Part shown: positions 5,901 through 50,451 of the stretch, in pieces
How positions within the stretch are numbered: position 1 is the first letter of the stretch
Layout of the letters: the number at the start of each line of letters is the position of its first letter
Origin: Clostridiaceae bacterium
GTDB lineage: Bacteria; Bacillota; Clostridia; DSM-8532
Assembly: GCA_012521105.1 (NCBI GenBank)
Contig: JAAYNA010000065.1
Coordinates: forward strand, 2,535 to 66,534
DNA length: 64,000 bases
Direction: 5' to 3'
Notes under the pieces: generated by a model
What the model saw: only the letters and a program-made list of their open reading frames with translations
The model's database searches: none
Told to the model about the DNA's origin: nothing
Program-made: the position numbers and the translations under genes

Positions 5901-6506
5901 ATGTTTGAAGAAATGATTAAAAGGGATTATCACCATCCCTGCATTATAATATGGGGTTTACATAATGAAATAGCTACCTACACCAATGCAGGATATGATA
6001 TAACAAAAGCCTTTGCAAATAAAGTCAGGAGTTTGGATAATACCAGACTTATTTCGTATGCTTCATACCATCCCATGACCGATATCTGTTTCTCTTTGGT
6101 GGATATAATCTCTATAAATCAATATTTTGGATGGTATTATGGTGAGATTGAAACCTGGGAAAGCTTCCTTAGTGATTTTAAAAACAGGCTTAAGAAAGAC
6201 AAGCTGGATGATAAGCCTATTATAATATCAGAGTTTGGAACGGCGGCACTATATGGAGAGGATACCTTTGAATGTGTAAAATGGTCTGAAAATTACCAGG
6301 AAAAACTGTTAAGCCATACTTTGAAACTTTTTTATAATGATCCTGCTATTGCCGGCTGCTACATATGGCAATATTGTGACGTGCGTACTTCAAAAGAAGT
6401 AGGTTTAACAAGGGCAAGAGGCTTTAACAATAAGGGTCTTGTAAATGAATATAGAAAGCCCAAATTGTCTTACTGGGCGGTGAAAAAAATATTTGAGCAG
6501 CAGTAA
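5901..6506 (+). pseudogene. 5'-truncated glycoside hydrolase family 2 (beta-glucuronidase/galactosidase-like), C-terminal TIM-barrel part only
   Basis: RDYHHPCIIIWGLHNE (acid/base), IISEFG (nucleophile) and NNKGLVNEYRKPK. Only 201 aa; the N-terminal domains and first half of the barrel are missing. Confidence 0.8.
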
Positions 6507-7336: not shown

Positions 7337-8641
7337 TTAAACATTACCCCTGTTTTCCCGGTACTTTTTCGGGCTTATTCCGGTCATTTTCTTAAACACT
7401 TTGGAAAAATAACTTTGATCTTCAAATCCAACCAGATTTGAAACTTCCACCATCGAAATGGATGGATCCAACAAAAGCTTCTTGCTCATTTCAATACGCA
7501 CATAATTCAGATAAGCGTTAAAGTTCACATCCATTTCTTCCTTAAAAATTTTGCTGAAGTATGAAGGACTTAAATAAACATAAGCAGCTACATCTTCAAG
7601 GGTTATTTTTTTCATGTAGTTTTTACTGATAAAGTCAATGGATTTAAATATTACGTCTTTATTTTTTACATTAGCCAGATTGAACACATGATCGGTAAAA
7701 CGCTCCATAATTCTGGAAAGCCACATTGTAAGTTCTTCCAGGTCACAAAAACCATAAATCTGATTAAGGTACTGGTAGTTTAAACCGAATATTTGCTCAA
7801 TCTCAGCTCCGCCTTTCAGAGCTGCCCGGGACAATAACACAACAAGTTCAAGCACACGAGCGCGGATTAATTCAAAATCATTTCCTGATGTAAAGAAAAT
7901 ATGTCCGAGTATTTCATTTAAAAGCTTCTGAGACATAGGTTTGTTTCCCATTGAAATTGCGCTTAACAATTCCCCTTCCTTTTTAATAGGATAGGGGGAT
8001 ATATTTTCACCGCTGCTTGAGATTTTTTTCAGCTTTTGTATGTGCTCTGATATATCGGCTGCCTGCTTCTGCACTTCCTGGTCAACATCGTACTGGTGTC
8101 TTGAAGAATCCGACAGATAGAATGTTACCATTCTAAGCAGCTCGGACATGCTGTTGACAAGCTCGGTACCTGTTACGGGAATTGATTTTGAAAAACTGAT
8201 TGCCTTTGATAATTCTTCGTTATCGAAGTACTTTTTGAAAATATCGGCTATCAGGAATTCTTCAGGCTCAATCATGTGAACAGGCCCTCCCAATATGGCA
8301 CCTTTCATCATACCCTCAATTGTAATTGGCGAAGCCCAATGTACCATCCCTAAAGGGCAAAAGAAAACATATTTTCCTCCAAACCTTTCGGCCTGATAAC
8401 TTCCGTATAGATGCACGCTTCTGCAGTCAAATTTTGGGCTCTTCTTATTTTCAGACAATTCCTTTGTCTTGCCGTCAGCTGAAAACTCGGTACAAAACCC
8501 GCAAAACATTTTTCCAGCAAGTGAAGAATAAATAACTTTTCCGCTGTCGTCTATTAAAAATACAGGTAATTTAATAACATTACTGTAATGCTGCACTGCT
8601 TCAACGGCCTTGTCGTAATCAAAGCCCAGGTCGTTTCTCAT
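7337..8641 (-). CDS. PocR ligand-binding domain / AraC-family transcriptional regulator
   Basis: N-terminal FCGFC...CRSVH...YVFFCPLGMVHWASPI; C-terminal AraC HTH (LSPSYFSKIFK, GFEDQSYFSKVFKKMTGISPKKYR). Confidence 0.88.
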   Translation of the reverse strand: MRNDLGFDYDKAVEAVQHYSNVIKLPVFLIDDSGKVIYSSLAGKMFCGFCTEFSADGKTKELSENKKSPKFDCRSVHLYGSYQAERFGGKYVFFCPLGMVHWASPITIEGMMKGAILGGPVHMIEPEEFLIADIFKKYFDNEELSKAISFSKSIPVTGTELVNSMSELLRMVTFYLSDSSRHQYDVDQEVQKQAADISEHIQKLKKISSSGENISPYPIKKEGELLSAISMGNKPMSQKLLNEILGHIFFTSGNDFELIRARVLELVVLLSRAALKGGAEIEQIFGLNYQYLNQIYGFCDLEELTMWLSRIMERFTDHVFNLANVKNKDVIFKSIDFISKNYMKKITLEDVAAYVYLSPSYFSKIFKEEMDVNFNAYLNYVRIEMSKKLLLDPSISMVEVSNLVGFEDQSYFSKVFKKMTGISPKKYRENRGNV

Positions 8642-8754
8642 AATTTATCCCCTTATATGAAGATGTTTAGAATTTAAGCTTATACTTAAGATCATACACA
8701 TGATGCAGGGTTGGATATTGAAAAAATTTATGTTTTTTTGTAATTCCTAATACT

Positions 8755-10605
8755 TTATATGTCGGAACCAAAAAACATATTTTCTGTGTATTGATAGGTG
8801 AAATCTAATCTTGCTGATAATTCCAGGTATTTTATTTGCTTTGCAATTGCACATATATCTGAAAGATTCTCTGCTGAAAGCAGCGTGTAAATTGCTCCTG
8901 CACCGGCAGCATTCCCAACCGGTTTTGTTCTTCCCGATAAATCTTTTGGCAAAAGACCTATGGTTATTGCACTGTCGATATTAATAAAACTTCCAAAACC
9001 TCCTGAAAGATATACATTTTTAATATCATCGACATCCGAGCGGATTTCATCGATAAGTATGTTAATACCTGCAGCAATTGCAGCTTTTGCATTCTGTAGT
9101 TCACGGATGTCTTTTTGAGATATGTATATATTTTCACCGTGGATCGTGTTACTTGCCCGAACCAGTAAAAAGGCCTTCTGATTGTTTATCTTAATCAGTC
9201 TGTTGCTGTATATCTTTGCATTATCAGGCAACTCTTCATCATCCAGAATGCGGCCGGTCTCATCCATTACACCAATTTTCAGCATACATGCGACTGCATC
9301 AATTAAGCCTGAACCACATATTCCTATAGGTTTATATCCCCCAATTGTATCAATTTTCAATGTACCATTATCAGCAATTGAAACAGCGCTTATTGCGCCA
9401 TCAACACTGCCAATGCCACACGATATATTGGCACCTTCAAAAGCCGGACCTGCTGCAGTTGAACATGCATATAAGAAAGAATTGTTGCCAATAACAATTT
9501 CCCCGTTAGTACCAATATCAATAAGGAGAGAAATTTCGGTATTTTTGTGCATTCCAGTGGAGAGCACCGCTGCTGTTGTATCTGAGCCTATATATGCAGA
9601 AACCGAGGGCAGTACAAACAACCTTCCTTTAGGGTTTATGTTAAGTTCAAGGTCGCAGGGTTTTAAAGTAAGTCCTGATAGCAGTACGGGAATAAAAGGA
9701 GCAGAGGCAATATTAGCCGAGGGAAGTTCAAGCAAAAGATGCAGCATTGTGGTATTCCCCGACAGCGTTACCGCGTAAATATCTGTATGATGTATCCCTG
9801 CTGCAGTTACTAATTGTTGTATCAGATCATTAAGCGCATTTCGTATAATTAAGGCCATTTCAGCTTGATTTTCCTTGCCTTTTGAAGAATATTCTATCCT
9901 GGATATAACGTCGGCACCATACTTTTTTTGCGGGTTTAATTTGGATGATACAGCCATTTGTTTTCCTGTGTTTAAATCATACAGATATGCAGCAAGGGTT
10001 GTGGTTCCAATATCAACTGCAACTCCGAAATTTTTAGAAACAGTGTTACCGCTTTCAACACCGGTTACACTTCCTGAAATATCTATTATGGTTATATCAA
10101 AATCCTTTTCTCTTAGGATATCGGGAAGTTCCCTGAGAAAGGAAAGGGAAAAACTCTGAAAACCGCTGTACAGATTATTTTCATTAAAAGATGAAATAAA
10201 GCGTACATCATCAGATCTTTGATCGCTGATAGAAGGGCGGGGCAGATTAACAAAAGTTTTTCTTACTACGGGCCTGCCAATAGTTTCGGAAATATTTGCA
10301 TCGGTTACAATTGAACTATTCCTTTGATCGGTATTCAAAGAAATCTCCAAATTATCATAAACCTTTACCATACATGACAGGTGAACACCTTTATTAATGT
10401 CTGACGGTGACAGGTGCGTTTTTTCTTCGGATGTATATGGAACAGAATTATGTATTAACACACGGCATTTACCGCAAATGCCTTTACCATTACATGGGGT
10501 TTCTAATAAAAAGCCCTGTCTTTTAAGTGCATCCGAAAGGCTAATACCTTCGGGCACATGGAAAATTTTATTTTCATTCCCTGTATGGACTGAGATCTTA
10601 GGCAA
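8755..10605 (-). CDS. ASKHA-domain reductive activator of corrinoid proteins (RACE/RACo, DUF4445) with N-terminal 2Fe-2S domain
   Basis: PCNGKGICGKC...LSC ferredoxin; VDIGTTT, YGADVISRI, LIDIGTNGE, AAGPAFEG, GICGSG, GNAAGAGA. Confidence 0.9.
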   Translation of the reverse strand: MPKISVHTGNENKIFHVPEGISLSDALKRQGFLLETPCNGKGICGKCRVLIHNSVPYTSEEKTHLSPSDINKGVHLSCMVKVYDNLEISLNTDQRNSSIVTDANISETIGRPVVRKTFVNLPRPSISDQRSDDVRFISSFNENNLYSGFQSFSLSFLRELPDILREKDFDITIIDISGSVTGVESGNTVSKNFGVAVDIGTTTLAAYLYDLNTGKQMAVSSKLNPQKKYGADVISRIEYSSKGKENQAEMALIIRNALNDLIQQLVTAAGIHHTDIYAVTLSGNTTMLHLLLELPSANIASAPFIPVLLSGLTLKPCDLELNINPKGRLFVLPSVSAYIGSDTTAAVLSTGMHKNTEISLLIDIGTNGEIVIGNNSFLYACSTAAGPAFEGANISCGIGSVDGAISAVSIADNGTLKIDTIGGYKPIGICGSGLIDAVACMLKIGVMDETGRILDDEELPDNAKIYSNRLIKINNQKAFLLVRASNTIHGENIYISQKDIRELQNAKAAIAAGINILIDEIRSDVDDIKNVYLSGGFGSFINIDSAITIGLLPKDLSGRTKPVGNAAGAGAIYTLLSAENLSDICAIAKQIKYLELSARLDFTYQYTENMFFGSDI

Positions 10606-10740
10606 TTAAACCACCTTTTTTCATTGTTATTAATACAAAAAAATTATAACATATGCATTTCATTTTACCCATGTCAATAATTACTTTTTTAATGAAAATA
10701 TTGCGTCTTTTCAGTAGAAAGAATATAACATCCCAGCGAC

Positions 10741-10868
10741 TTCCAGACTAACATAAACAGGCCTTGGTAAGCCTTAACAACCTCATGAACAGGCATATCT
10801 GGATATTCGCGTAGTAGCCACCGTACTTTTTGTCTTCAGTTTTTTACATGTCTTTAATATTCTTTTAT
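10741..10868 (-). mobile_element. Heavily eroded IS1634-family transposase relic
   Basis: Minus-strand translation gives EDKKYGGYYA, DMPVHEVVKAYQG and RPVYVSLE, matching EDEKYDGYYA, DMPDHEVVKAYHG and RPVFVSLE in the larger IS1634 remnant near 33.2-33.4 kb, with internal deletions. Confidence 0.7.
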
Positions 10869-11180
10869 TTTAAATTTTTAAATATGAGTAAAGCTGGATT
10901 GTGTTGTAACTGGATGCACATAATATTAATGTCTTATATCAGGTAACATATACTATTTGAAGAATTATATAAATACGTTGACATAAATATACATCTTGAA
11001 GAAATTCTGTTGAAACATGAAACATATTACTATACAATATCAACAAATACTTAATGTGGTAATATTTGCAAACTTACATTTAATTGTACTTAATTGTTAT
11101 CTACCAGACACTCCTAATTACTCCGTATTTTATGCATTTAAAGAGAAACCATAATAAAGCTTAATAATAACAAAATAGAA

Positions 11181-11819
11181 ATGGAGTTGATTTTTATGCA
11201 AAAATTAAAATTAAGACTAACCATTATACTTATATTTACTATTATTTCAACTTTGTTACCGATTAATTCTTTTGCCTACGATTACAGTATAAGAGAACAC
11301 AGTGGTTATTCTTATGATTTTGAAGGTTTAAGTCTGTATCAGGAAGCATTCAATAATTTGGTTTCTGTATCCGAATTTGTATACAGTGAAGCTGAAAATG
11401 CCATTATAAGTACATATTTTGAAAAAATACTGGATTTGGAGAATGAACAGGAATTAAAAAAAATTGATTCATTACTGAAGGATTTTATAAACGATTTAAA
11501 AAATATTGAAAGAAGTGAATTTTCCGGGTTAAACCAAAATTGCAGTATTAAAATAACAGATAAGATAAGTAGTTTATTAGATGAATTCAAATCCGAAATG
11601 GAAAACCAGTATTCTATTTCGTGGAACTGGAATGAATCAGATAAACTGTTTGCTATTAAACAAAAGCTTGGTATATATGCAGGTTTGATAATTTATTCCG
11701 ACAGATATGACGAGAATATAACAGCATTGCTTAACCGTGCTATAGAAAAATTTGTCGAGAAAAGGCATTACTGGAATTCAAGAGGGATTACAGGGAAAAA
11801 GGGTATGATATTGATGTAA
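11181..11819 (+). CDS. Hypothetical secreted protein
   Basis: Signal-peptide-like N-terminus (KLKLRLTIILIFTIISTLLPINSFA); helical, AT-rich; no family recognised. Confidence 0.6.
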   Translation: MELIFMQKLKLRLTIILIFTIISTLLPINSFAYDYSIREHSGYSYDFEGLSLYQEAFNNLVSVSEFVYSEAENAIISTYFEKILDLENEQELKKIDSLLKDFINDLKNIERSEFSGLNQNCSIKITDKISSLLDEFKSEMENQYSISWNWNESDKLFAIKQKLGIYAGLIIYSDRYDENITALLNRAIEKFVEKRHYWNSRGITGKKGMILM

Positions 11820-11946
11820 CAGGTATAGCTGATGAAAAAACGTGGAACATACTTTTAAATTTGCAGTAAAATTAAAATAATGCAGGGGTAAGGTAATCTT
11901 TATCCCTGCAGTTCATACAAAGTTTACCTGTAAGGGGGTAACCAGG

Positions 11947-13267
11947 ATGAAGAAAAAAATGCTTCTGTATTTTTCAGTTGCTTTAATTTTGATATATTTG
12001 ACCGGATGCGGGGTTAACAGCTCAAATGCAAATGGAGAAGATTTAAACTTTCGGATAGATTCTGCCAAATCACAGGAACAAGATTCAGAAACAGTTTTGA
12101 ATAATAAAGATAATACTGAACCAAACAAAACCTTAATTACCGGCTCAGAAACAAGTCCGGCAAAAGAGCATGCAGTGCCACAGATGACAGAAGAAGATAA
12201 AATAACACCAACACCTGAGCCAACTCCCGCTTTTACTGTAACTCCTGCCCCTATTTCTGATGAAGAGGAAATAATTATTGTTGCAATATCAGCGGGTGAA
12301 ACCCATGCGGCAGCAATTGACAATAAAGGGGTTCTGTATACCTGGGGAGGAAACCAGTACGGTCAGCTGGGGGATGGAACCACGACAGACAGAAGCGTAC
12401 CAAAGCCCGTTCCGGGTATAACTAATGCAAAATCTGTTGTGTGTGGCTTCAGAAGTACCTTCGTACTGTGTGAAGATGGTCTGGTATATAGTTTTGGTGA
12501 TAAAGGTTTTATAGGAAGAGACTACGGAGAAAACACTTTACCGGTGGCGATTAAGGAACTTACCGATATAATTGAAATTGATTCAAACAGTTATGATAAT
12601 ATAGCTTTAAAAAGTGACGGAACCGTATATGACTGGGGCTGGAATTCTCACGAGGAAATCCATGACATTCCGAAGAAAGTGAAAGAAGTGAAAGATATAG
12701 TATCTGTAGCCGTCGGTAACGGATACTATCTTGCAGTTGATAAGAACGGAGAGGTTTGGGTGTGGGGAAGGAATGATATTGATATTATTAATATCGGAAG
12801 TCTGCAGCCTTACTGCAGGTATCCGGAAAAAGCCCGGAATATTCATAATGTTAAGAGCGTCTGCGGAACTGGGAGTGGAATAATTGGCCTTCATTATGAC
12901 GGGAATGTAACCAGATGGGGAAAAAGTGATGGATCGGAAGTGATATTCAGCAGCAAAGATGTTATGTCAGTTCATGCGGGTAATGCCCACTTTTTGGCTG
13001 TAAAAAAAGACGGAACGGTATATTCGTGGGGGATTAACAAGCATGGAGAGCTTGGCAGCAGAACTCTGGAAGAACATTTACGAACCCCTGATAATTGAAG
13101 GTCTTAACAGAGTGATAGCTGCAAACGGCGGAGAGTATTTTTCAATGGTATTAAAAGAAGACGGTACAGTATGGGCATGGGGAAGGAATGATTATGGCCA
13201 GCTTGGTATCGGAACAACCGAAGATCAGCTGGAACCCAGGCAGGTAATTTTTTCAGCAAGTGAATAG
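11947..13267 (+). pseudogene. RCC1-repeat beta-propeller lipoprotein split by a +1 frameshift
   Basis: Lipobox LTGC, PTPEPTP linker and RCC1 repeats (YTWGGNQYGQLGDG, WAWGRNDYGQLGIG). ORFs 11947-13098 and 13043-13267 join into ...LEEHYEPLIIEGL... if one T is removed at 13077-13079. Confidence 0.8.
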
Positions 13268-13486
13268 ATATTTTTTGGAATTGTCTAAAAGGTCGAATAA
13301 GTTAAGCATATTATAATTCCTGCCTTTAAGTTTATCTTCAGTGTTAGCCCTGGTAGAAAAACATTGCTATTTTTCTAAAAAAGGAATACAATATGTTTGC
13401 TTGAAGAACTGATAAAGTAAGTGGATTAATAGAACAAATAGTGCTGAAACTTATAACAGATCAGCAGTTTCCTAAGGAAGGTTAAT

Positions 13487-14242
13487 ATGAGATACAAACT
13501 TATATGCTGTGATGTTTTTTGCCGCGAAATGTACGAAGCACTTCTTAAGAGCAGAAATAATGTTTTTGTGGTTTTCACAATGAAAATGTCCCATGAGTAT
13601 CCCAACTATTTAAGAGAGCTAATACAGAAGGAAATTGACAATACCGACCCTGATATATTCAGTCATATTCTACTTGGATACGGGCTATGTGGAAATGCTG
13701 TTGTAGGGCTTAAAACCGGTACGATCCCTGTTGTTATACCCAGAGCCCATGACTGTTGTACAATTTTTCTTGGTTCCAAACAGTCTTACATCAGGCATTT
13801 CGGTCACAGGCCCAGCTGCAGGTGGACTTCAGGGGGATATATGCAGGATGGAGATAATTATATGAGAAACAGTGAAACGCATCATTTTCTTGGTATAAAC
13901 ATGAGTTTTCAGGAATTAGCTGATAAATATGGCGAGGAAAATGCCCGTTATATTATTGAAACCTTAGCACCGAAGGATGATAGTGATAAGCAGGTTGTTT
14001 ACATAGAAACACCGCCTTATGAGAAGTTTGACTTGAAGAAACAGATAGAAAATGAAGCAATGAAAGAAGGTCGTAAGTTTGAGAGTATCAAGGGCAACAC
14101 AAGGCTTATAGAGATGCTCGTGAACGGTCGGTGGAATGAAGACGAATTTCTTGTTGTTCCTCCTTACCATACTATAGAAGGTGTGTATGACAATGAACTT
14201 ATTATGAAAGCAGTGCCTGTATCAAGCCGTACCGGGAACTGA
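13487..14242 (+). CDS. DUF1638-like protein (associated with corrinoid methyltransferase loci)
   Basis: YKLICCDVFCRE, ILLGYGLCGNAVVGL, IPRAHDCCTIFLGS motifs. Confidence 0.8.
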   Translation: MRYKLICCDVFCREMYEALLKSRNNVFVVFTMKMSHEYPNYLRELIQKEIDNTDPDIFSHILLGYGLCGNAVVGLKTGTIPVVIPRAHDCCTIFLGSKQSYIRHFGHRPSCRWTSGGYMQDGDNYMRNSETHHFLGINMSFQELADKYGEENARYIIETLAPKDDSDKQVVYIETPPYEKFDLKKQIENEAMKEGRKFESIKGNTRLIEMLVNGRWNEDEFLVVPPYHTIEGVYDNELIMKAVPVSSRTGN

Positions 14243-14246
14243 TAGT

Positions 14247-15011
14247 TTATGTTATTTTTACATATATGTTTGCTGCGTTTTCCAGGTTGTATGCTTCTGG
14301 AATGATTGAAAAGGTAATGTTCATTGGCCTTCTAAATTGATATGCAGATCGGTTTTGAATAATCCGTACCGCTTCAGGTTCTTCTGTTGAAAACAGCAGC
14401 CTTTCGGGGATTGGATTAAAATCCCTGCGAATAAATTGCAGTATTCCTCCAACCGGCAGAGTAAGTTCTGTTATTTCCATCAAAATTTGACTGTCTCCGG
14501 TGATGAAATACTCAAAAACATACGCATCTGAGATAATTGGTACCCGGTATGGAGACAAATGTAATTCATCGTGAGAAATCTGCCAGATACGATACTGATT
14601 GCCGATTTTTTCGATGATATTGAAATCATCGAAAAAAACGTTACCCTGAAATATTGAATCTCTTGCTACCAGATTAGTAAGAGCTCCAAAATGATAGCCA
14701 ACAACACGATAAGTTAAAAAACTGCCGGTTCGGGCAAATACCTTTAAAATCACCACGGGGGCATTAAGTATATTCCAATTTTCATTTTCGATTTCTGTAT
14801 AAACAAGGCCTTCAATGGTCCAGATGTATTGGGTATACCAGTTTCCTGAAACAGGGCAAAAACGCTGTATTATAAATGTTGTATAAGTTGTATTGGTGAT
14901 ATCTGTGATTCTTTCTATGATTACCCGCTCGTTCCCCGGGAAGCCATCAAGGTCAATATCAGATATCTCCTGAGAAATGCTGCTTGTAACCGGTTCTCTT
15001 TCAGTAAACAT
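14247..15011 (-). CDS. Hypothetical protein, possibly late-sporulation (sigma-K) expressed
   Basis: Open 262-codon frame; likely ATG at 15011 after GTGGTG; no family recognised. Confidence 0.6.
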   Translation of the reverse strand: MFTEREPVTSSISQEISDIDLDGFPGNERVIIERITDITNTTYTTFIIQRFCPVSGNWYTQYIWTIEGLVYTEIENENWNILNAPVVILKVFARTGSFLTYRVVGYHFGALTNLVARDSIFQGNVFFDDFNIIEKIGNQYRIWQISHDELHLSPYRVPIISDAYVFEYFITGDSQILMEITELTLPVGGILQFIRRDFNPIPERLLFSTEEPEAVRIIQNRSAYQFRRPMNITFSIIPEAYNLENAANIYVKIT

Positions 15012-15037
15012 TAAATCACCACTATATTTTTTCAATT

Positions 15038-37186: not shown

Positions 37187-37311
37187 ACATGTTGTGCTGA
37201 AATTAACGGCTGCCTTCAAGAAATAAACTTGCTGCCAGGATCATATCCTGATTAAGGCCAGGTTGAGTTTAGCACAACCTGTAAATTCATATTTTGTTTG
37301 GGGGTATTGTA

Positions 37312-39666
37312 ATGCAGTATGGTTATTTTGATCAAAAGGCCCGTGAATATGTTATTACAAGACCTGATACTCCAACACCCTGGATAAATTACATAGGAAG
37401 CGGGAAATACGGAGGCATTGTTTCTAACACCGGAGGCGGCTACAGTTTTCACACCGATCCACGAAACAGAAGAATTACAAGGTACAGGTACAATAATATC
37501 CCAATGGACAGGCCAGGAAGGTACATCTATATCCGCGACAGAGTGACTGGTGAGTACTGGAATCCCGGTTTCCAGCCGGTACAGAGAAAACTTGATTCAT
37601 ACAGGTGCAGGCATGGAATGGGCTATACTGTTCTAGAGGGAGAATATAAACAAATTGCAGCCGATGTAACCTACTTTGTGCCTGACGACAAAGATTTTGA
37701 AATCTGGCTTGTACATATCAAAAACCTTGGTCAAATAGAAAGAAAACTTCAGGTATTCAGCTATGCTGAATTCTGTTTCTGGGATGCTGTAAAAGATCAA
37801 CAGAATGTTGACTGGGTTCAACAGATAAATCAGGGAAGGTATGAGGATAAAGTTATAACCTGGCATCCCCATCACTTCAATGAAGAATGTACTTTTTTTG
37901 CCACAAATGAGGAAATAAACAGCTTTGACACAAATCTTGAATCCTTCATCGGCAGATACCGCTGTGAAGCAAATCCTGTTGCCGTTGAAATGGGCGGATG
38001 CTCCAATTCAATATCATACAGAATGAATGGCGTAGGAGCCTTCTGTATTGACCTGAATCTGTCTGCCGGAGAAGAACGGGACATAATATTTATTCTAGGC
38101 TTTACCGAAAACAAAAAAGCAATAAGGGATGAGATAAAAAAGTACCTGAATGTAAGTTACGTAAAGGAAGCCCTTGAAAGGTTAAAGTATTCATGGGACA
38201 AATACCTGGATAAGCTTTATATTGAAACTCCTGATGATGAGATGGACCTGTTTGTGAATACCTGGAATCAGTATCAATGCAAAATAACCTTCAACTGGTC
38301 AAGGTTTGTATCCCTTTACCAGCTTGGTATAGGAAGAGGTATGGGAACACGGGACAGCGCACAGGATACCCTTGGCGTAATGCATTCGATACCTTACCAG
38401 GCAAGTGAGCTTATTAAAAAATTATTACATTGCCAGTATACCGACGGACGCATTTATCATCTGTTTTTCCCATTGACTGGCGAAGGAGGTGTTGGTGATG
38501 CACCTGTAATGAAATTCGACTGGTACTCCGATGATCATCTTTGGCTTCCTCTTGCAGTTAACTCGTATTTAAAGGAAACAGGTAATTTTGAATTTTTAAA
38601 CAGTATTGTTTTATACAATGACAATAAAACCGAAGGTACAGTCTGGGAACACCTGGACAGGGCACTGGATTTCACATATCATCATCGCGGGCCTCATGGC
38701 CTCGCTCTTGCCGGCAGGGCTGACTGGAACGACACCCTGAATCTGGATGTTGGAAATGGGATTGCAGAAAGTGTTTTTACTTCAATGCTGTTTTGCAAAG
38801 CTGTCCTTGAGATGATTCAGATATCTGAATTTTTAAAGGATGAAGACAGTGCACTAAAATACAGGAACATGTATGAAGAAATGAAAAAAGCCATAAATGA
38901 GTCGTGCTGGGACGGGGATTGGTACATAAGGGCATTTGATGATGAAGGAAAGGTGCTTGGCTCAAGGGAGAATGAGTACGGAAAGATATTTATCAACAGT
39001 CAGTCATGGTCTGTACTTAGTCTTGTGGCTCCTGAAGAATACGCAAAGAAATGCCTGGAGTCGGTATATGAGCACTTAAATACAAAATATGGAATTGTAA
39101 AGGTGTACCCAGGATACCCCGAATATGATCCGACTAAAGGCGGAATAACAACATTTCCGCCCGGAACAAAGGAAAATGGCGGTATCTTCTTGCATACAAA
39201 TCCATGGGTTATGATTGCAGAATGCATTTTGGGCAACGGAAACAGGGCCTACCAGTACTACACAGAGATACTTCCTGCAAGGCGCAATAATGATGCCGAG
39301 ATACTGGAAGTTGAACCATATGTGTATTGTCAGAATGTTCTCGGAAAGGAACATCCCCAATTTGGAACGGGCAGAAATTCATGGCTTACTGGTACGGCTG
39401 CCTGGAATATGGTTGCAGTAAGCCAGTATATATTGGGAATAAGGCCCGAGTATGAAAGCTTAACTGTGGATCCGTGTATACCTTCCGGATGGAAAGGTTT
39501 TAAGGCAAGAAGGAAGTTCAGGGGCTGTACTTACAATATAGAAGTGAAAAATCCTGAAGGGGTATGCAAGGGTGTTAAAAAAATAATTGTAGATGGCGAT
39601 GAAACCGACAAAATCCCTGTAAAGCCCGAAGGAACGGTTTGTGATTGCATAGTTATAATGGGTTAA
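37312..39666 (+). CDS. GH94 glycoside phosphorylase (cellodextrin/cellobiose/chitobiose phosphorylase family; by recollection most like clostridial cellodextrin phosphorylase CepB)
   Basis: MQYGYFDQKAREYVITRPDTPTPWINYIG, GRGMGTRDSAQD, ADWNDTL, KENGGIFLHTNPW, SWLTGTAAW. Substrate not determinable from sequence alone. Confidence 0.9.
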   Translation: MQYGYFDQKAREYVITRPDTPTPWINYIGSGKYGGIVSNTGGGYSFHTDPRNRRITRYRYNNIPMDRPGRYIYIRDRVTGEYWNPGFQPVQRKLDSYRCRHGMGYTVLEGEYKQIAADVTYFVPDDKDFEIWLVHIKNLGQIERKLQVFSYAEFCFWDAVKDQQNVDWVQQINQGRYEDKVITWHPHHFNEECTFFATNEEINSFDTNLESFIGRYRCEANPVAVEMGGCSNSISYRMNGVGAFCIDLNLSAGEERDIIFILGFTENKKAIRDEIKKYLNVSYVKEALERLKYSWDKYLDKLYIETPDDEMDLFVNTWNQYQCKITFNWSRFVSLYQLGIGRGMGTRDSAQDTLGVMHSIPYQASELIKKLLHCQYTDGRIYHLFFPLTGEGGVGDAPVMKFDWYSDDHLWLPLAVNSYLKETGNFEFLNSIVLYNDNKTEGTVWEHLDRALDFTYHHRGPHGLALAGRADWNDTLNLDVGNGIAESVFTSMLFCKAVLEMIQISEFLKDEDSALKYRNMYEEMKKAINESCWDGDWYIRAFDDEGKVLGSRENEYGKIFINSQSWSVLSLVAPEEYAKKCLESVYEHLNTKYGIVKVYPGYPEYDPTKGGITTFPPGTKENGGIFLHTNPWVMIAECILGNGNRAYQYYTEILPARRNNDAEILEVEPYVYCQNVLGKEHPQFGTGRNSWLTGTAAWNMVAVSQYILGIRPEYESLTVDPCIPSGWKGFKARRKFRGCTYNIEVKNPEGVCKGVKKIIVDGDETDKIPVKPEGTVCDCIVIMG

Positions 39667-39703
39667 ATTTTATGGGAATAAAATTATAAAATAAAATGTT
39701 GCG

Positions 39704-39731
39704 GGAACTTTTTCAGGTCTTATAAGTCTAA
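39704..39731 (+). promoter_or_regulatory. ECF-sigma (sigmaE/AlgU-type) promoter upstream of the serpin
   Basis: GGAACTT-...-GTCTAA, with 16 nt between GAACTT and TCTAA. Confidence 0.7.
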
Positions 39732-39768
39732 ATAATATAACTGGCTAACCCGCAACTACTAACTTCTA

Positions 39769-39813
39769 AAGCATAGTTCACAACTTAATAGTTGCGGCTA
39801 TGCTTCTTTTTTT
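39769..39813 (+). terminator. Intrinsic terminator in the serpin 5' leader (attenuator candidate)
   Basis: AAGCATAGTT-CA-CAACT-TAAT-AGTTG-C-GGCTATGCTT followed by CTTTTTTT, ending about 50 nt before the start codon. Confidence 0.7.
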
Positions 39814-39863
39814 CACAGTTGGCACAGTAGTTAAAACCACCGGTAATAAATTTTTTAAGGAGA

Positions 39864-41159
39864 GTGTTTCAGGTGAGGAGGATTTATTTTTTAATTCCAG
39901 TTTTGATTTTTATATTAATTTTTTCAGCGTGTGCGCATTCTATTGCCCATTCACCGATTTTAAAAGACAAAGACCATTCTGACGTACCGGAAACTGAAGC
40001 CCCTGAAAACAGCCTTAACAGAAAAGAATCCGGAGCAGCCGGTGAAAAAGACATCGGGCTGATCGATGCAAACAAAAGATTTGCATGGGACCTTTTTAAA
40101 AAAATTAATGAAGAGGATTCAGACAAAGAAATTTTCATGTCTCCCTTTTCGGTCTCAGGCATGCTTATGATGGCTTATAACGGTGCTGAAGGCTCAACAA
40201 GGGATGCTATGGCTAGAGCAATGCACTATGAAGGGTTATCGATTGATGACCTGAATGAGGGATATAAGTATTTAATCAGCCGGTTAAACAATTTGGATGA
40301 AAAGGTGAAAATAGAAATTGCAAACTCGATATGGTCAAGAAAAGGGTTTGAAATAAAGCAAAACTTTATAGATATCAACAAAAGCTATCTTTTCTCTGAC
40401 GTGGAAAGCCTTGACTTTGCAAACCCCGAATCGGCCAATGTTATAAATAACTGGGTTTCTAAAAAGACCAATAATCTTATACCTTCCATCATTGACCCTC
40501 CAATTGCAGATGATGTTATGATGTATCTTATAAACGCCATATATTTTAACGGTGAATGGACAGAAGCCTTTAAGGTGAAAAACACTTTTGAAACCGATTT
40601 TTATTCCTATGACCGAAAGACAGACAAGGTACAAATGATGCAAAAGAATGGCAATGCGGATTTGTCTGAATCGGATGAATACAGGGCGGCAAGCCTTACC
40701 TATGGCAATGGGAAAGCTGCTATGATGGTAATTCTTCCGAATAAAGACATTAATGAATTTATCAAAAACTTTGATCATAAAAAGTGGGATGAGATTGTTG
40801 AAAATTTAAGGCCGGTCAGAAATGTGAACCTGCAGCTTCCAAAATTCAAAATAGAATATGGTATTAAGGAACTGAACAACTCCTTGGCTTCCCTTGGAAT
40901 GGAAGTAATTTTTTCAGAACGTGCCGATTTCAGCGGTATATCAGAGAATCTGTTTATTAACAGGGTTCTTCACAAAGCTGTTTTAGACGTGAACGAGGAG
41001 GGAACAGAGGCTGCTGCCGTAACAGTGGGTGAAGTAATGAAAACTTCATATTCCGAGCCGATAAAATTTATAGCCAACAAACCATTCTTATTCGTAATCT
41101 ACGACACCGAAGACGGGAACATACTTTTTGCAGGTAAAAAACTGTTTGGCGACAGGTAG
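39864..41159 (+). CDS. Serpin (serine protease inhibitor) lipoprotein
   Basis: Lipobox FSAC; IFMSPFS, INNWVSKKTNNLI, LINAIYFNGEW, hinge EEGTEAAAVT, FIANKPFLF. Confidence 0.95.
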   Translation: MFQVRRIYFLIPVLIFILIFSACAHSIAHSPILKDKDHSDVPETEAPENSLNRKESGAAGEKDIGLIDANKRFAWDLFKKINEEDSDKEIFMSPFSVSGMLMMAYNGAEGSTRDAMARAMHYEGLSIDDLNEGYKYLISRLNNLDEKVKIEIANSIWSRKGFEIKQNFIDINKSYLFSDVESLDFANPESANVINNWVSKKTNNLIPSIIDPPIADDVMMYLINAIYFNGEWTEAFKVKNTFETDFYSYDRKTDKVQMMQKNGNADLSESDEYRAASLTYGNGKAAMMVILPNKDINEFIKNFDHKKWDEIVENLRPVRNVNLQLPKFKIEYGIKELNNSLASLGMEVIFSERADFSGISENLFINRVLHKAVLDVNEEGTEAAAVTVGEVMKTSYSEPIKFIANKPFLFVIYDTEDGNILFAGKKLFGDR

Positions 41160-46889: not shown

Positions 46890-47178
46890 GTCATCGCTCC
46901 ATATTCTATCTTTATATGCTGCACCATGGAATATTTTCTGCAATATATTTATTATTAACCGCATTTGATAAATGGATTTCTGAGATATATATTCCATTTC
47001 AAGCAATAATTAATATAATTGTGGATTGTATAAATACGTGGGATGCTGGATTTCCCCTTGCATGCAATAAAATGGAGAATTACCGGATATTACTTATCTT
47101 GAACTCCTTTTATGAACATAGTATGATAAACTTGGCATATTTAAGGTAATGTTTTCAATTTTAACTTAGGAGTGTATC

Positions 47179-47472
47179 ATGAAAAACCAACAAGATATTA
47201 AACATATAGCGAATTTAGTAAATCTAAGTTTTTCAGATAGTGAAGTTCAAAAATTAATAAAGGACATTAAGAAAGTATCACAATATTTAATGGATAAACT
47301 CTCCTGTCTGGATACCGAAAATATAGAGCCGATGGAACATATCTTTCACACAGCAAATATATTTCGCGGTGATTATTCTACTGACTCCTTGGATCGCGAG
47401 GGATTGCTAAAGAATGCACCAGTGAAGGAAAATGGTTATTTTGCGGTGCCCCGGATTATGGATGAGAACTGA
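47179..47472 (+). CDS. gatC: Asp/Glu-tRNA amidotransferase subunit C (divergent)
   Basis: Size and position; DTENIEPM, LLKNAP..ENGYFAVPRI. Confidence 0.85.
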   Translation: MKNQQDIKHIANLVNLSFSDSEVQKLIKDIKKVSQYLMDKLSCLDTENIEPMEHIFHTANIFRGDYSTDSLDREGLLKNAPVKENGYFAVPRIMDEN

Positions 47473-47488
47473 ATGGAGTTGTTTTGTT

Positions 47489-48916
47489 TTGGATCTTACC
47501 CGCTTAACGATTAGTGAGGCCTTAGAAAAAATAAAAAACAAAGAGATTAGTATTATTGAACTTGTTAGGTCATATCTTAAACAGATTGAAAACCTGAATA
47601 AAACCATTGGTGCGTATATAACTGTTTGCAGGGAAGATTGCGAAAGGATGGGCCCGATCCTGCAGGAAAAGCTTGACTGCGGGGAAAATATTCCATTGGC
47701 CGGAATTCCAATGGCACTTAGCGATAATATTATTACACGTGGTGTTTTAACTACATGTGCGTCTAAAATGCTTCATAATTTTATACCTCAGTATGATTCA
47801 ACTGTTAATGAAAAATTACGACACAGCGGCGCTATACTGTTGGGCAAGCTTAACATGGACGAGTTCTCGATAGGAAGTTCAAATGAGAATTCATATTTCG
47901 GGCCTGTAAAAAATCCGTGGGACCCTGAAAGGGTTCCAGGCGGTTCATGCGGTGGGGCTGCGGCAGCAGTCGCAGCTAATATGGCCTGTTTTGCCCTTGG
48001 TTCGGATGCTTGTGGCTCTGTCAGACAGCCTTCATCCTTTTGTGGGGTTGTAGGTTTAAAACCAACTTATGGTCTGATTTCAAGATATGGGCTTATTGCA
48101 TTTGCATCGTCATTGGAGCAAATAGGTCCAATAACCCGGACTGTTGAAGACTGTGCAATTGTCTTAAATGCTATAGCAGGTTATGATCCGAAGGATTCCA
48201 CTTCTGCGAATATTAAACACCCCGATTATACCGCTTTCCTTAAAGACAACATAAAAGGATTGAAGATTGGACTGCCAAAAGAATATATTGAAAAAGGTCT
48301 TCAGAAAGAAATAAAACAAAAATTATGTGAAGCTTTAACAGTATTTGAATCCATGGGTGCTGTTGTGGAGGAAATTTCCATTCCAATGACCAAATATGCC
48401 ATACCTGCATATTACATCATAGCATCAGCTGAAGCCAGTTCAAACCTTGCCCGTTATGACGGTATCAGATATGGTTACAGGGCAGAAGACTGTGAAAGCT
48501 TAGAGGAACTATACAAAAAAACAAGAAGCGAGGGGTTTGGTTTTGAAGTTAAAAGAACAATTATGCTTGGAGCATATTTTATAAGCCGGAATTGTTATGA
48601 TTCATACTATAAAAAAGCGCTGAAAGTGAGGCGCCTTATTTCTGAGGATTTTAAGAAAGCCTTCAACGATATTGATGTTATTATTACTCCAACTGTCCCC
48701 AAGACTGCATTTAAAACAGGAAGAAAAGACGATCCCATTCAAATGTGCATGAGTAATATATATACTGTGTCGGCTAATCTCGCAGGCCTTTGTGCCATTT
48801 CCATACCACACGGAACCGACTGCAACGGGCTTCCTGTAGGGCTGCAGCTTATTGGTAAACCTTTTGACGAGGGAACATTAATAAGGGCTGCATATGCCTT
48901 TGAAAAAAATACTTAA
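47489..48916 (+). CDS. gatA: Asp/Glu-tRNA amidotransferase subunit A; glutaminase site degenerate
   Basis: Amidase signature LGKLNMDEF, PGGSCGG, GSDACGSVRQP, GLKPTYG, SSNLARYDG. Likely TTG start at 47489. Confidence 0.9.
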   Translation: MDLTRLTISEALEKIKNKEISIIELVRSYLKQIENLNKTIGAYITVCREDCERMGPILQEKLDCGENIPLAGIPMALSDNIITRGVLTTCASKMLHNFIPQYDSTVNEKLRHSGAILLGKLNMDEFSIGSSNENSYFGPVKNPWDPERVPGGSCGGAAAAVAANMACFALGSDACGSVRQPSSFCGVVGLKPTYGLISRYGLIAFASSLEQIGPITRTVEDCAIVLNAIAGYDPKDSTSANIKHPDYTAFLKDNIKGLKIGLPKEYIEKGLQKEIKQKLCEALTVFESMGAVVEEISIPMTKYAIPAYYIIASAEASSNLARYDGIRYGYRAEDCESLEELYKKTRSEGFGFEVKRTIMLGAYFISRNCYDSYYKKALKVRRLISEDFKKAFNDIDVIITPTVPKTAFKTGRKDDPIQMCMSNIYTVSANLAGLCAISIPHGTDCNGLPVGLQLIGKPFDEGTLIRAAYAFEKNT

Positions 48917-49008
48917 GTTAATACCTGATTTATAATGTGGTAATAAGTTAAAATCTGTTATAAAATATACCGGTGGTTTTTGAAATGAAAGACTTAAAGG
49001 AAAAACTG

Positions 49009-50451
49009 ATGGAATATGAAGTTGTTATCGGCTTGGAAGTTCATGCCGAGCTTACTACGAATTCAAAAATATACTGTAACTGTGCAACAAGGTTCGGTGG
49101 AGAACCAAATACCCGGTGCTGCCCTGTTTGTACAGGCATGCCCGGAGCTTTGCCTGTTCTGAACAAAAAAGTAGTGGAGTATGCCGTAAAAGCAGGTCTG
49201 GCAACAAACTGCAGCATAACGAGATATTCAAGACAGGACAGAAAAAATTACTTCTACCCTGATTTGCCAAAAGCTTACCAAACCTCACAACAAGACAGGC
49301 CTTTGTGTACCAATGGCTATCTGGAAATAGAGGTTGATGGGCTTTTAAAAAAGGTTGGAATTCATAGGATTCATATAGAAGAAGATGCTGGAAAACTTAT
49401 TCACAACGAATCCGGTAACAACACCCTGATAGATTATAACCGCTGCGGCGTGCCTTTAATTGAGATTGTAACCAGACCTGAACTCAATTCTTCAGCAGAA
49501 GTTAAAGTGTTTATTGAAAAGTTAAAAGCCATACTTGAGTACACAGAAGTTTCAGACTGTAAAATGCAGGAAGGCTCACTGCGGGTAGATATAAATTTGT
49601 CGGTAAGGCCAAAGGGCGAAAGTACTTTGGGAAATCGTACCGAAATAAAGAATCTGAACTCGATTAGTGCAATTGTCAGAGCCATAGAATATGAAGCAAA
49701 AAGACAAATTGATGAAGTGAAAAAGGGCAGAAAAATTATCCAGGAAACAAGAAGATGGGATGATGAAAAAGGTGTAAGTTTTCCGATGAGAGAAAAGAAC
49801 GAAACCGTTGATTACAGATTTTTTCCTGAACCTGATTTATGCCCTATAATTATTGATGAAGCCTGGTTAAATGAAATTAAATCATCTGTCCCTGAACTGC
49901 CTGACGAAAGAAAAAACCGCATTATTGCAGAATACAAACTACCTGAATATGACGCGAATTTCATTACAGGTTCGAAGACATTAGCAGACTATTTTGAAAA
50001 GGCGGCATGTAAAAGCAAAAATCCTAAAGCAATAAGCAATTGGTTAATGGGCGACCTTTCGAAAAAGTTAAAGGAGAATAATGTTGAAATAACAAATATA
50101 CCGGTCACCCCCGAAAACCTTGCGAAACTTGTTGAGTTTATAGATTCGGGTGTTATAAGTGGTAAAATAGCTAAACAGGTATTTGAAATAATGTGGGTTA
50201 CAAGTGGGGATCCCGCTGAAATTATAGAGAACAAAGGACTTAGGGTTATAAACGATGCAGACGAAATCAGAAAGGTGGTTATAAAAGTTTTTGAAGAGAA
50301 CCCGAAAGCAATAGAAGATATTAGAAAAGGGAAAGAAAAATCAATCGGATTTTTAATAGGTCAGGTTATGCGTAAGACTAACGGAAAAGCAGCCCCGGAT
50401 ATTGCTAATCAGCTGATTCGCAAGGAACTGGATCGGTATTTCGATTCTTAG
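49009..50451 (+). CDS. gatB: Asp/Glu-tRNA amidotransferase subunit B
   Basis: VIGLEVHAEL, RKNYFYPDLPKAYQ, HIEEDAGK, PLIEIV, RTEIKNLNS, DYRFFPEPDL and a YqeY tail. Start could be 48973 or 49009. Confidence 0.95.
   Translation: MEYEVVIGLEVHAELTTNSKIYCNCATRFGGEPNTRCCPVCTGMPGALPVLNKKVVEYAVKAGLATNCSITRYSRQDRKNYFYPDLPKAYQTSQQDRPLCTNGYLEIEVDGLLKKVGIHRIHIEEDAGKLIHNESGNNTLIDYNRCGVPLIEIVTRPELNSSAEVKVFIEKLKAILEYTEVSDCKMQEGSLRVDINLSVRPKGESTLGNRTEIKNLNSISAIVRAIEYEAKRQIDEVKKGRKIIQETRRWDDEKGVSFPMREKNETVDYRFFPEPDLCPIIIDEAWLNEIKSSVPELPDERKNRIIAEYKLPEYDANFITGSKTLADYFEKAACKSKNPKAISNWLMGDLSKKLKENNVEITNIPVTPENLAKLVEFIDSGVISGKIAKQVFEIMWVTSGDPAEIIENKGLRVINDADEIRKVVIKVFEENPKAIEDIRKGKEKSIGFLIGQVMRKTNGKAAPDIANQLIRKELDRYFDS

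Follow-up and report, generated by a model that had tools for sequence, protein, structure and literature searches.

A gatCAB operon of digester and compost Clostridia with a GatA predicted to lack glutaminase function: a candidate ammonia-dependent tRNA amidotransferase

The tRNA-dependent amidotransferase (AdT) GatCAB is the textbook case of an enzyme in which a gated ammonia tunnel links a glutaminase to a tRNA-dependent kinase/transamidase. The catalytic Lys79 of its GatA subunit (residue numbers throughout are those of Staphylococcus aureus GatA) is, as far as is known, invariant throughout the amidase-signature family. In the yeast homologs the Ser-cisSer-Lys triad forms 'catalytic scissors', and an Asp (D418) and an Arg (R334) hold the substrate glutamine (PMC4027206); Ser178 has been named as the nucleophile in a review (PMC2330236). 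Here we describe a gatC-gatA-gatB operon from a Clostridiaceae bacterium, located at 47179-50451 of a 64,000-nucleotide stretch of contig JAAYNA010000065.1 (assembly GCA_012521105.1, positions 2,535 to 66,534; the whole stretch is called the window). The three genes are intact and co-directional on the + strand, and all score above the curated cutoffs of NCBI equivalog models. By sequence and context they are identified as members of the GatC, GatA and GatB families, but GatA fails the defining catalytic features of its own family, and it is predicted to be without what glutamine hydrolysis needs, the glutamine pocket and the catalytic lysine both being gone.

The gatA gene (47489..48916, + strand) encodes 475 aa when read from the TTG at 47489, or 484 aa if read from the ATG at 47462. 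An initial annotation, made from the letters of the sequence, had called the frame otherwise intact and full length, and the product indeed scores above the equivalog cutoff of TIGR00132 (613.5 bits vs 481.1) and also matches PF01425. Residue equivalences were fixed by phmmer alignment to S. aureus GatA (2df4_A), which ran end to end (E 4.6e-159) and gave the departures K79S, S155C, T175A, G176C, D211E, R358T, Y422C and D425N. The catalytic Lys is replaced by Ser (AGC, 47720..47722). GGSSGG reads GGSCGG (47945..47950), with cis-Ser154 (47945) kept and S155C encoded by TGC at 47948. The oxyanion/nucleophile loop DTGGS reads DACGS (48008..48019), where GCT at 48008 gives T175A, TGT at 48011 gives G176C and the nucleophile Ser178 (48017) is kept. 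D211E (48116..48118), a codon-level reading, leaves the residue acidic. R358T (ACA, 48557..48559) removes the Arg that holds the glutamine carboxylate, and the MY..D loop reads MCMSN (48746..48757), with Y422C at 48746 and D425N (AAT) at 48755; all of these features lie on the + strand. The Ser-cisSer-Lys triad (S178, S154, K79) is incomplete, S154 and S178 being retained and K79 being Ser, and the glutamine-recognition set R358/D425/Y309 has lost its Arg and its Asp, with Tyr309 kept. The initial annotation had proposed the Lys-to-Ser change at 47720 and the DACGS loop, and had equated KRTI (48557) and MCMSN (48755) with Arg358 and Asp425; the codons and the 2df4_A alignment, which shows Ser and not Lys at position 79, bore out each of these assignments. 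S155C, D211E and Y422C were absent from its list, and D211E and Y422C are named here as additions.

These positions were compared with a reference set of 135 diverse GatA from fetched genome loci. Of the 93 columns conserved to at least 95% in that set, the window GatA differs at 15 and canonical members of the same family at 1. K79, S154, S155, T175, G176, S178, D211, R358 and D425 are each 100% conserved across the 135 sequences; because seven of the nine are changed in the window, chance is excluded as the source of the substitutions. All 13 degenerate GatA examined have an acidic residue (D or E) at position 211, whereas positions 79, 178, 358 and 425 take dissimilar residues.

A search of 5.8 billion proteins supplied the relatives, of which the 120 best hits were aligned. 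The nearest relatives of the window GatA are also degenerate, each in a different way. Together they form a clade to which we give the name D1, a Thermoclostridium-like, uncultured and heat-loving lineage of biogas and compost Clostridia known from metagenome-assembled genomes (MAGs) labelled Thermoclostridium sp. or DTU070; six members were examined, the window included. Members of the cluster, which NCBI lists for example as 'GatA [Thermoclostridium sp.]' or '[Clostridiaceae bacterium]', are present on dozens of contigs. P0003/L001 (MAG DTU070; 76% identity to the window) has K79A, S155N, DACGS, R358T and D425Y, and P0004/L077 (74%) has Y422S and D425K with the triad kept. K79N occurs in the three others: with S154A, S178G and D425N in P0005/L159 (72%), with S178G, Y309H and D425N in P0020 (67%), and with S154A, S178D and D425Y in P0013/L160 (66%). 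D425 is lost in six of six members and Y422 in five, K79 is replaced by S, A or N in five, S178 by G or D in three, and position 155 is C, N or S. Because D425 is gone in every member and the catalytic replacements differ from member to member, loss of binding would have come first and catalytic drift later; this is the pattern expected if a single ancestral loss of glutamine binding had been followed by drift of catalytic residues that were no longer useful. The GatB tree recovers D1 as a monophyletic group, with the rest of the family as its sister. A further protein, P0002 (88% identical), has a seemingly scrambled signature region and was dismissed as assembly noise, its contig (L162, ERZ2647963) having 0.77x coverage. 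On L162 the NAGPA, LytR, GatB and M16 genes are all fragmented by assembly errors that mimic pseudogenes.

Selection on the operon was estimated as dN/dS by the method of Nei and Gojobori, comparing the window with L001, L077 and L159; dS was 1.2-1.6, near saturation, so the ratios are approximate. Within D1 they were 0.12, 0.10 and 0.14 for gatA, 0.11, 0.11 and 0.13 for gatB, and about 0.2 for gatC. No stops or frameshifts were found in the D1 genes, the apparent exception being L162, the 0.77x contig with broken neighbours. D1 gatA is thus under purifying selection, as are gatB and gatC, with ratios nowhere near 1. The initial annotation had left it to an alignment to tell a conserved clade from strain-specific drift with dN/dS near 1; with D425 gone in all six members, K79 in five, and ratios of about 0.1 (0.10-0.14 for gatA), the outcome is a conserved clade and not strain drift. 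In a sliding comparison of conservation between D1 and six canonical family members, the loss of conservation in D1 peaked at residues 343-382 (around R358) and 408-437 (the Y422/D425 loop), with smaller peaks at 168-192 (the nucleophile loop) and 303-327 (around Y309). Outside these peaks D1 GatA is conserved as much as the canonical set or more, 183-207 being the most conserved stretch of all. Relaxation is therefore confined to the glutamine pocket of GatA.

The tRNA-dependent half of the enzyme was analysed in the same manner. The gatB gene (48985..50451, + strand; 488 aa, start ATG 48985) scores 674.2 bits against a cutoff of 338 for NF004012, and its product matches both PF02934 (GatB_N) and PF02637 (GatB_Yqey) and aligns with solved GatB structures (e.g. 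3h0l_B, E 2.3e-160). Among 110 diverse GatB sequences 65 columns are at least 95% conserved, and the window keeps 63 of them. Read on the + strand, the motifs GLEVH (49030), HIEED (49372), PLIEIV (49453), DINLS (49588), the 3-10 turn CKMQEG (49558) and the YqeY tail are present, the first three as the initial annotation had stated, and with them the Mg2+/ATP residues: E and H of GLEVH, HIEED, PLIEIV, and N and S of DINLS. Roles in ATP and Mg2+ binding have been assigned to these GatB residues (PMC4027206), and the K-M-E/Q 3-10 turn reads the U1-A72 pair of the tRNA (PMC2811023). The motif MR.KE..DYRYFP (49798..49821, + strand) carries N for E at 49798 and F for Y at 49819, in columns that are both 100% conserved in the 110 GatB; the same two columns are also altered in L001 and L160 (K/F) and unaltered in the D1 members L077 and L159. 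Because GatB retains its metal/ATP residues together with the 3-10 turn and the YqeY tail, it looks functional. The same features disfavour an earlier proposal that the operon might encode a non-tRNA amide ligase.

The window operon is flanked by LytR on one side and by M16-M16-lgt-ftsW on the other, and this neighbourhood also hosts the canonical gatCAB of the relatives P0006, P0021, P0023 and P0014. The other degenerate loci (L077, L159, L160 and L161) lie in the same neighbourhood, and MAG DTU070 has the same gene order as the window; all 11 family loci examined, canonical or degenerate, represent one syntenic locus. Shared synteny, together with the monophyly of D1 in the GatB tree, indicates that the window operon is the ortholog of the family's ordinary, housekeeping gatCAB at its ancestral locus and not an extra copy placed elsewhere. 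The initial annotation had taken it for a specialised paralog, which is not supported for the window.

K79 was lost independently in two sister lineages, D2 (after tandem gatAB duplication) and D3. D2 (P0025-P0034, P0031 and P0038) includes MAG DTU069 and three other GTDB representatives. Its genes are ordered gatA1-gatB1-gatC-gatA2-gatB2 (L075:6385-12887; also L229, L213/L218, L163+L227 and L228), A1 being fully canonical and A2 without Lys79. GatA2 has K79N or K79S, P182A/S, G214A and R323Q, with R358 and D425 kept, and B2 is sister to B1 in the GatB tree. At unsaturated dS (0.5-0.8), dN/dS in D2 was 0.09-0.155 for A2, 0.07-0.12 for A1 and 0.04-0.08 for B2. A canonical gatCAB partner adjoining the dead copy was found only in D2. 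D3 (P0027/L161) has K79M, S155A, T175A, G176D and D211E; its operon is alone at the locus, and it branches among canonical relatives. Taken together, a glutaminase-dead GatA with an intact GatB appears to be a recurrent, selected state in these digester and compost Clostridia. The final approximately 60 residues of D2 GatB1 and GatB2 are almost identical, a similarity that suggests gene conversion.

A set of Tissierellia GatA (L214, which is [Clostridium] ultunense DSM 10521, and L183, L217, L205, L215, L209, L201, L226 and L196), encoded in gatAB operons, keeps the K-S-S triad and has Ser in place of R358 and/or Gly or Ser in place of D425. These variants may reflect a different mode of binding glutamine or another amide donor.

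The locus was near-identical in contigs of four metagenome runs (2016-2025; depths 52, 11.4, ~17 and ~7.5), with no differences in the key codons, and independent assemblies (JGI, ENA and Logan) contain an identical 484-aa GatA on 11 contigs. Wherever a run with the locus is labelled, the label is that of a compost, biogas or biogas-fermenter, (anaerobic) digester or biofilm metagenome. Public annotation (NCBI, JGI) calls the degenerate proteins ordinary GatA.

We assign a probability of roughly 55% to the reading that GatA in this operon is a pseudo-glutaminase scaffold and that GatB amidates Asp/Glu-tRNA with free ammonia. The glutamine-binding residues (D425 and mostly Y422) would have been lost first, after which the catalytic residues would have decayed variously. 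GatA would have been retained since GatB relies on the scaffold that GatA and GatC form, and probably on the tunnel too; the scaffold role is proposed because GatC is required for the folding of GatA and for complex formation (PMC2330236), and because gatA mutations in mycobacteria destabilise GatB (PMC8406222). GatB would still phosphorylate Asp-tRNA(Asn) and/or Glu-tRNA(Gln) with ATP. The ammonia could not derive from glutamine hydrolysis by GatA, because the catalytic and glutamine-binding residues are replaced, and the amide nitrogen would instead be free NH3/NH4+, in ample supply in these habitats. Its way in may be the glutamine pocket, now empty and stripped of charge, and then the retained tunnel, or it may reach the GatB site directly; the pocket is a possible inlet because the substitutions strip charge and bulk at the tunnel mouth and because the acidic residue 211 and the 183-207 stretch persist. 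Such a use of ammonia is feasible in vitro, where 20 mM NH4Cl substitutes for glutamine in AdT transamidation and a mutant with a loosened GatA site shows NH4Cl-driven transamidation above wild type (PMC4027206). We infer that NH3 is a plausible donor, and the best candidate, for the window GatCAB.

A stronger version of this reading, which we put forward tentatively and consider possible but somewhat doubtful, would make gatCAB the sole route to Asn-tRNA and/or Gln-tRNA and thus obligately dependent on ammonia. Such a state would have arisen at least three times in related Clostridia from digesters and compost rich in ammonium, with the pocket and tunnel remodelled (T175A, D211E and loss of K79/R358/D425) into an ammonia inlet.

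Several observations weigh against an ammonia-dependent GatCAB of this kind. P0004/L077, a member of D1, retains the K-S-S triad, and loss of D425 alone need not abolish hydrolysis, as the triad-keeping Tissierellia GatA may illustrate. Canonical relatives occur in these habitats too, and high ammonium by itself therefore does not force the loss. The E>N and Y>F changes may mean that the chemistry of GatB is altered too. On the side of expression, no RNA runs holding the gatA locus were found. The D2 arrangement, in which a dead copy sits beside a canonical one, shows that a dead GatA can be accessory, and it is possible that the organism's genome has a canonical gatA elsewhere, or asnS/glnS together with asparagine synthetase.

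The last two points bear on the alternative that survives best, although we consider it unlikely: a canonical gatCAB or gatA would be encoded elsewhere in the genome, and the window operon would specify a complex with a specialised role, either ammonia-dependent or regulatory, that serves in particular conditions. The D2 tandem provides a model for such a division of labour, dead gatA2-gatB2 and canonical gatA1-gatB1 both being under purifying selection, and duplicated gatCAB operons are also known in Clostridium acetobutylicum. Arguing in the other direction, the operon lies at the ancestral locus, as do all 11 family loci examined, and there is no second gatCAB at the locus itself. No canonical GatA sister to D1 was present among the best 120 hits, which weighs against duplication because a partner derived from one would cluster as sister. 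A single family-type gatA turned up in MAG DTU070 in a DNA scan for the motif N[ILV]AG[LF]CAIS.P, which is not family-specific; the motif was rejected as a family marker, Cys437 also occurring in Verrucomicrobia, Planctomycetes and Tissierellia. The tandem pairs of D2 genomes showed up in that scan as well. When the canonical family GatA alignment was used to search for a second copy in DTU070, the matches listed (at least 600) included only unrelated genomes, at 61% identity or less.

The same question was put to the four metagenomes, and a weak test showed no second contig there that both aligns to gatAB and matches the depth of the organism. In two runs, X15 (52x) and X16 (11.4x), no second depth-matched contig aligned at 80% or more to the window gatCAB, a comparison that is insensitive, and in all four runs a canonical gatA1B1 reference drew no other contig of matching depth, again with low sensitivity. 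As a positive control, the window's own gatB was picked up on the gatA1B1 reference. Few of the many gatA genes in a metagenome align at 80% or more, so that a distant or horizontally acquired copy could escape such a test.

It is improbable, in our estimate, that GatA is still an amidase through rearranged catalysis or with a new amide donor, for example with Ser154/Ser178 and the new Cys155/Cys176. The window protein does retain both serines and gains Cys at 155, 176 and 422, and P0004 combines a full triad with a changed pocket. No replacement, however, is common to D1 (S, A or N at 79, C, N or S at 155, and G or D for S178 in three members), which is a pattern of decay and not of a new site, and Lys79 is invariant in the 135 diverse GatA. 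A little less credible still is the view that the operon is a relic, in which AsnRS, GlnRS and asparagine synthetase (or Asn import) would make GatCAB dispensable and the glutaminase site would decay first. Several bacteria have AsnRS and GlnRS besides GatCAB (PMC4206432), and the decay of catalytic residues is scattered and lineage-specific, as a relic might show. Against this, dN/dS of gatA, gatB and gatC is 0.1-0.2 across lineages with near-saturated synonymous sites, no real stop or frameshift occurs in the members, GatB keeps 63 of 65 columns, and relaxation is seen only in the glutamine pocket. Neither ongoing gene loss nor a re-invented amidase site agrees well with the data. A sequencing or assembly artefact, or a mutation in a single strain, can be dismissed: nothing was found in its favour, and it is refuted by the identical protein on 11 contigs and by four runs without key-codon differences.

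The gatC gene (47179..47472, + strand) is ordinary; it encodes 97 aa, scores 81.6 bits against a cutoff of 47.1 for TIGR00135 and matches PF02686. Gene callers place the gatA start at ATG 47462, which would overlap gatC by 11 nt; TTG 47489 is the more likely start, because GGAG lies 10 nt upstream and the resulting N-terminus agrees with those of homologs. A sigma-70-like promoter candidate, TTGAAC-17-TATGAT (47099..47127, + strand; a consensus match only), lies approximately 50 nt upstream of gatC. That leader is too short for a T-box, and no T-box or other Rfam family scored at or above its gathering score within the window, in agreement with the initial annotation, which had noted no T-box before the operon.

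Gene order around the operon is GH94, serpin, hydrolase, NAGPA-domain protein, LytR, gatCAB, membrane protein, M16, M16, lgt, ftsW, mraZ and rsmH. Pfam scans of 30 other open reading frames (ORFs) of the window detected no aminoacyl-tRNA synthetase, asparagine synthetase or glutamine synthetase. The GH94 (cellobiose phosphorylase-type) gene and the serpin gene that follows it (37294-41159) are kept as a pair in MAG DTU070. The 201-aa ORF at 5901-6506 covers no more than positions 115-298 of a GH2 TIM-barrel model 302 positions long, and it may be a truncated or degraded glycosidase gene. The region 7337-15035 encodes a PocR/AraC regulator, a RACo-type corrinoid activase (8755-10605), an RCC1-repeat protein (11947-13098) and a DUF1638 protein (13487-14242), and looks like a corrinoid-dependent methyltransferase neighbourhood.

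If the stronger version, with gatCAB as the sole and obligately ammonia-dependent route, is true, no earlier natural tRNA-dependent amidotransferase would be known to lack a functional glutaminase, and the accuracy of Asn/Gln decoding would depend directly on ambient ammonium. A natural lineage that gave up glutaminase chemistry and kept GatA under selection would mean that GatA has an indispensable non-catalytic role, that free ammonia can support aminoacyl-tRNA amidation in vivo, and that nitrogen-rich environments can repeatedly rewire a core translation enzyme. The degenerate proteins also offer a natural set of variants for the study of tunnel entry and gating, of relevance to the fields of aminoacyl-tRNA synthesis and amidotransferase channelling, and they expose a blind spot in annotation, a dead GatA being named ordinary GatA by NCBI and JGI.

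A full-text literature search retrieved no report of a natural GatA without catalytic residues, nor of an ammonia-dependent AdT. The window operon resembles the canonical GatCAB of S. aureus (2DF4/2F2A/3IP4) and A. aeolicus (3H0L) in gene set and order, in the alignments of GatA and GatB, in the GatB residues and in the conserved 183-207 stretch; it differs in that Lys79, T175/G176, R358, Y422 and D425 of GatA are replaced. A second comparison is with the duplicated gatCAB operons of C. acetobutylicum, reportedly described, with a T-box leader, by Saad et al. in 2012. These too are clostridial gatCAB, and duplication occurs in the family of the window as well (D2), but the window copy has no T-box and stands alone at the ancestral locus; the known C. 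acetobutylicum paralogs presumably have an active GatA.

Synthetases that use free ammonia and lack a glutaminase half are well known, as in the NH3-dependent NAD synthetase NadE and in AsnA compared with AsnB. There the glutaminase domain is wholly absent, whereas the window operon holds a full-length, conserved pseudoenzyme; unlike in NadE and AsnA, the dead GatA is presumably retained since GatB depends on it. The amidase-signature fold has been put to a non-amidase role in plant Toc64/OM64, and Tse8 of P. aeruginosa (PDB 6TE4, among the structure matches to the window GatA) likewise has the fold in a role other than that of the ancestral amidase. Toc64/OM64 and Tse8 act outside the AdT complex, whereas the window pseudoenzyme is found in its original operon and, we infer, in its original complex. 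An experimental precedent for the proposed mechanism is yeast mitochondrial GatFAB with a truncated GatF N-terminal domain, which loses glutamine-dependent activity and gains NH4Cl-dependent transamidation (PMC4027206); that enzyme is an engineered mutant with its catalytic residues intact, whereas the window represents a natural lineage.

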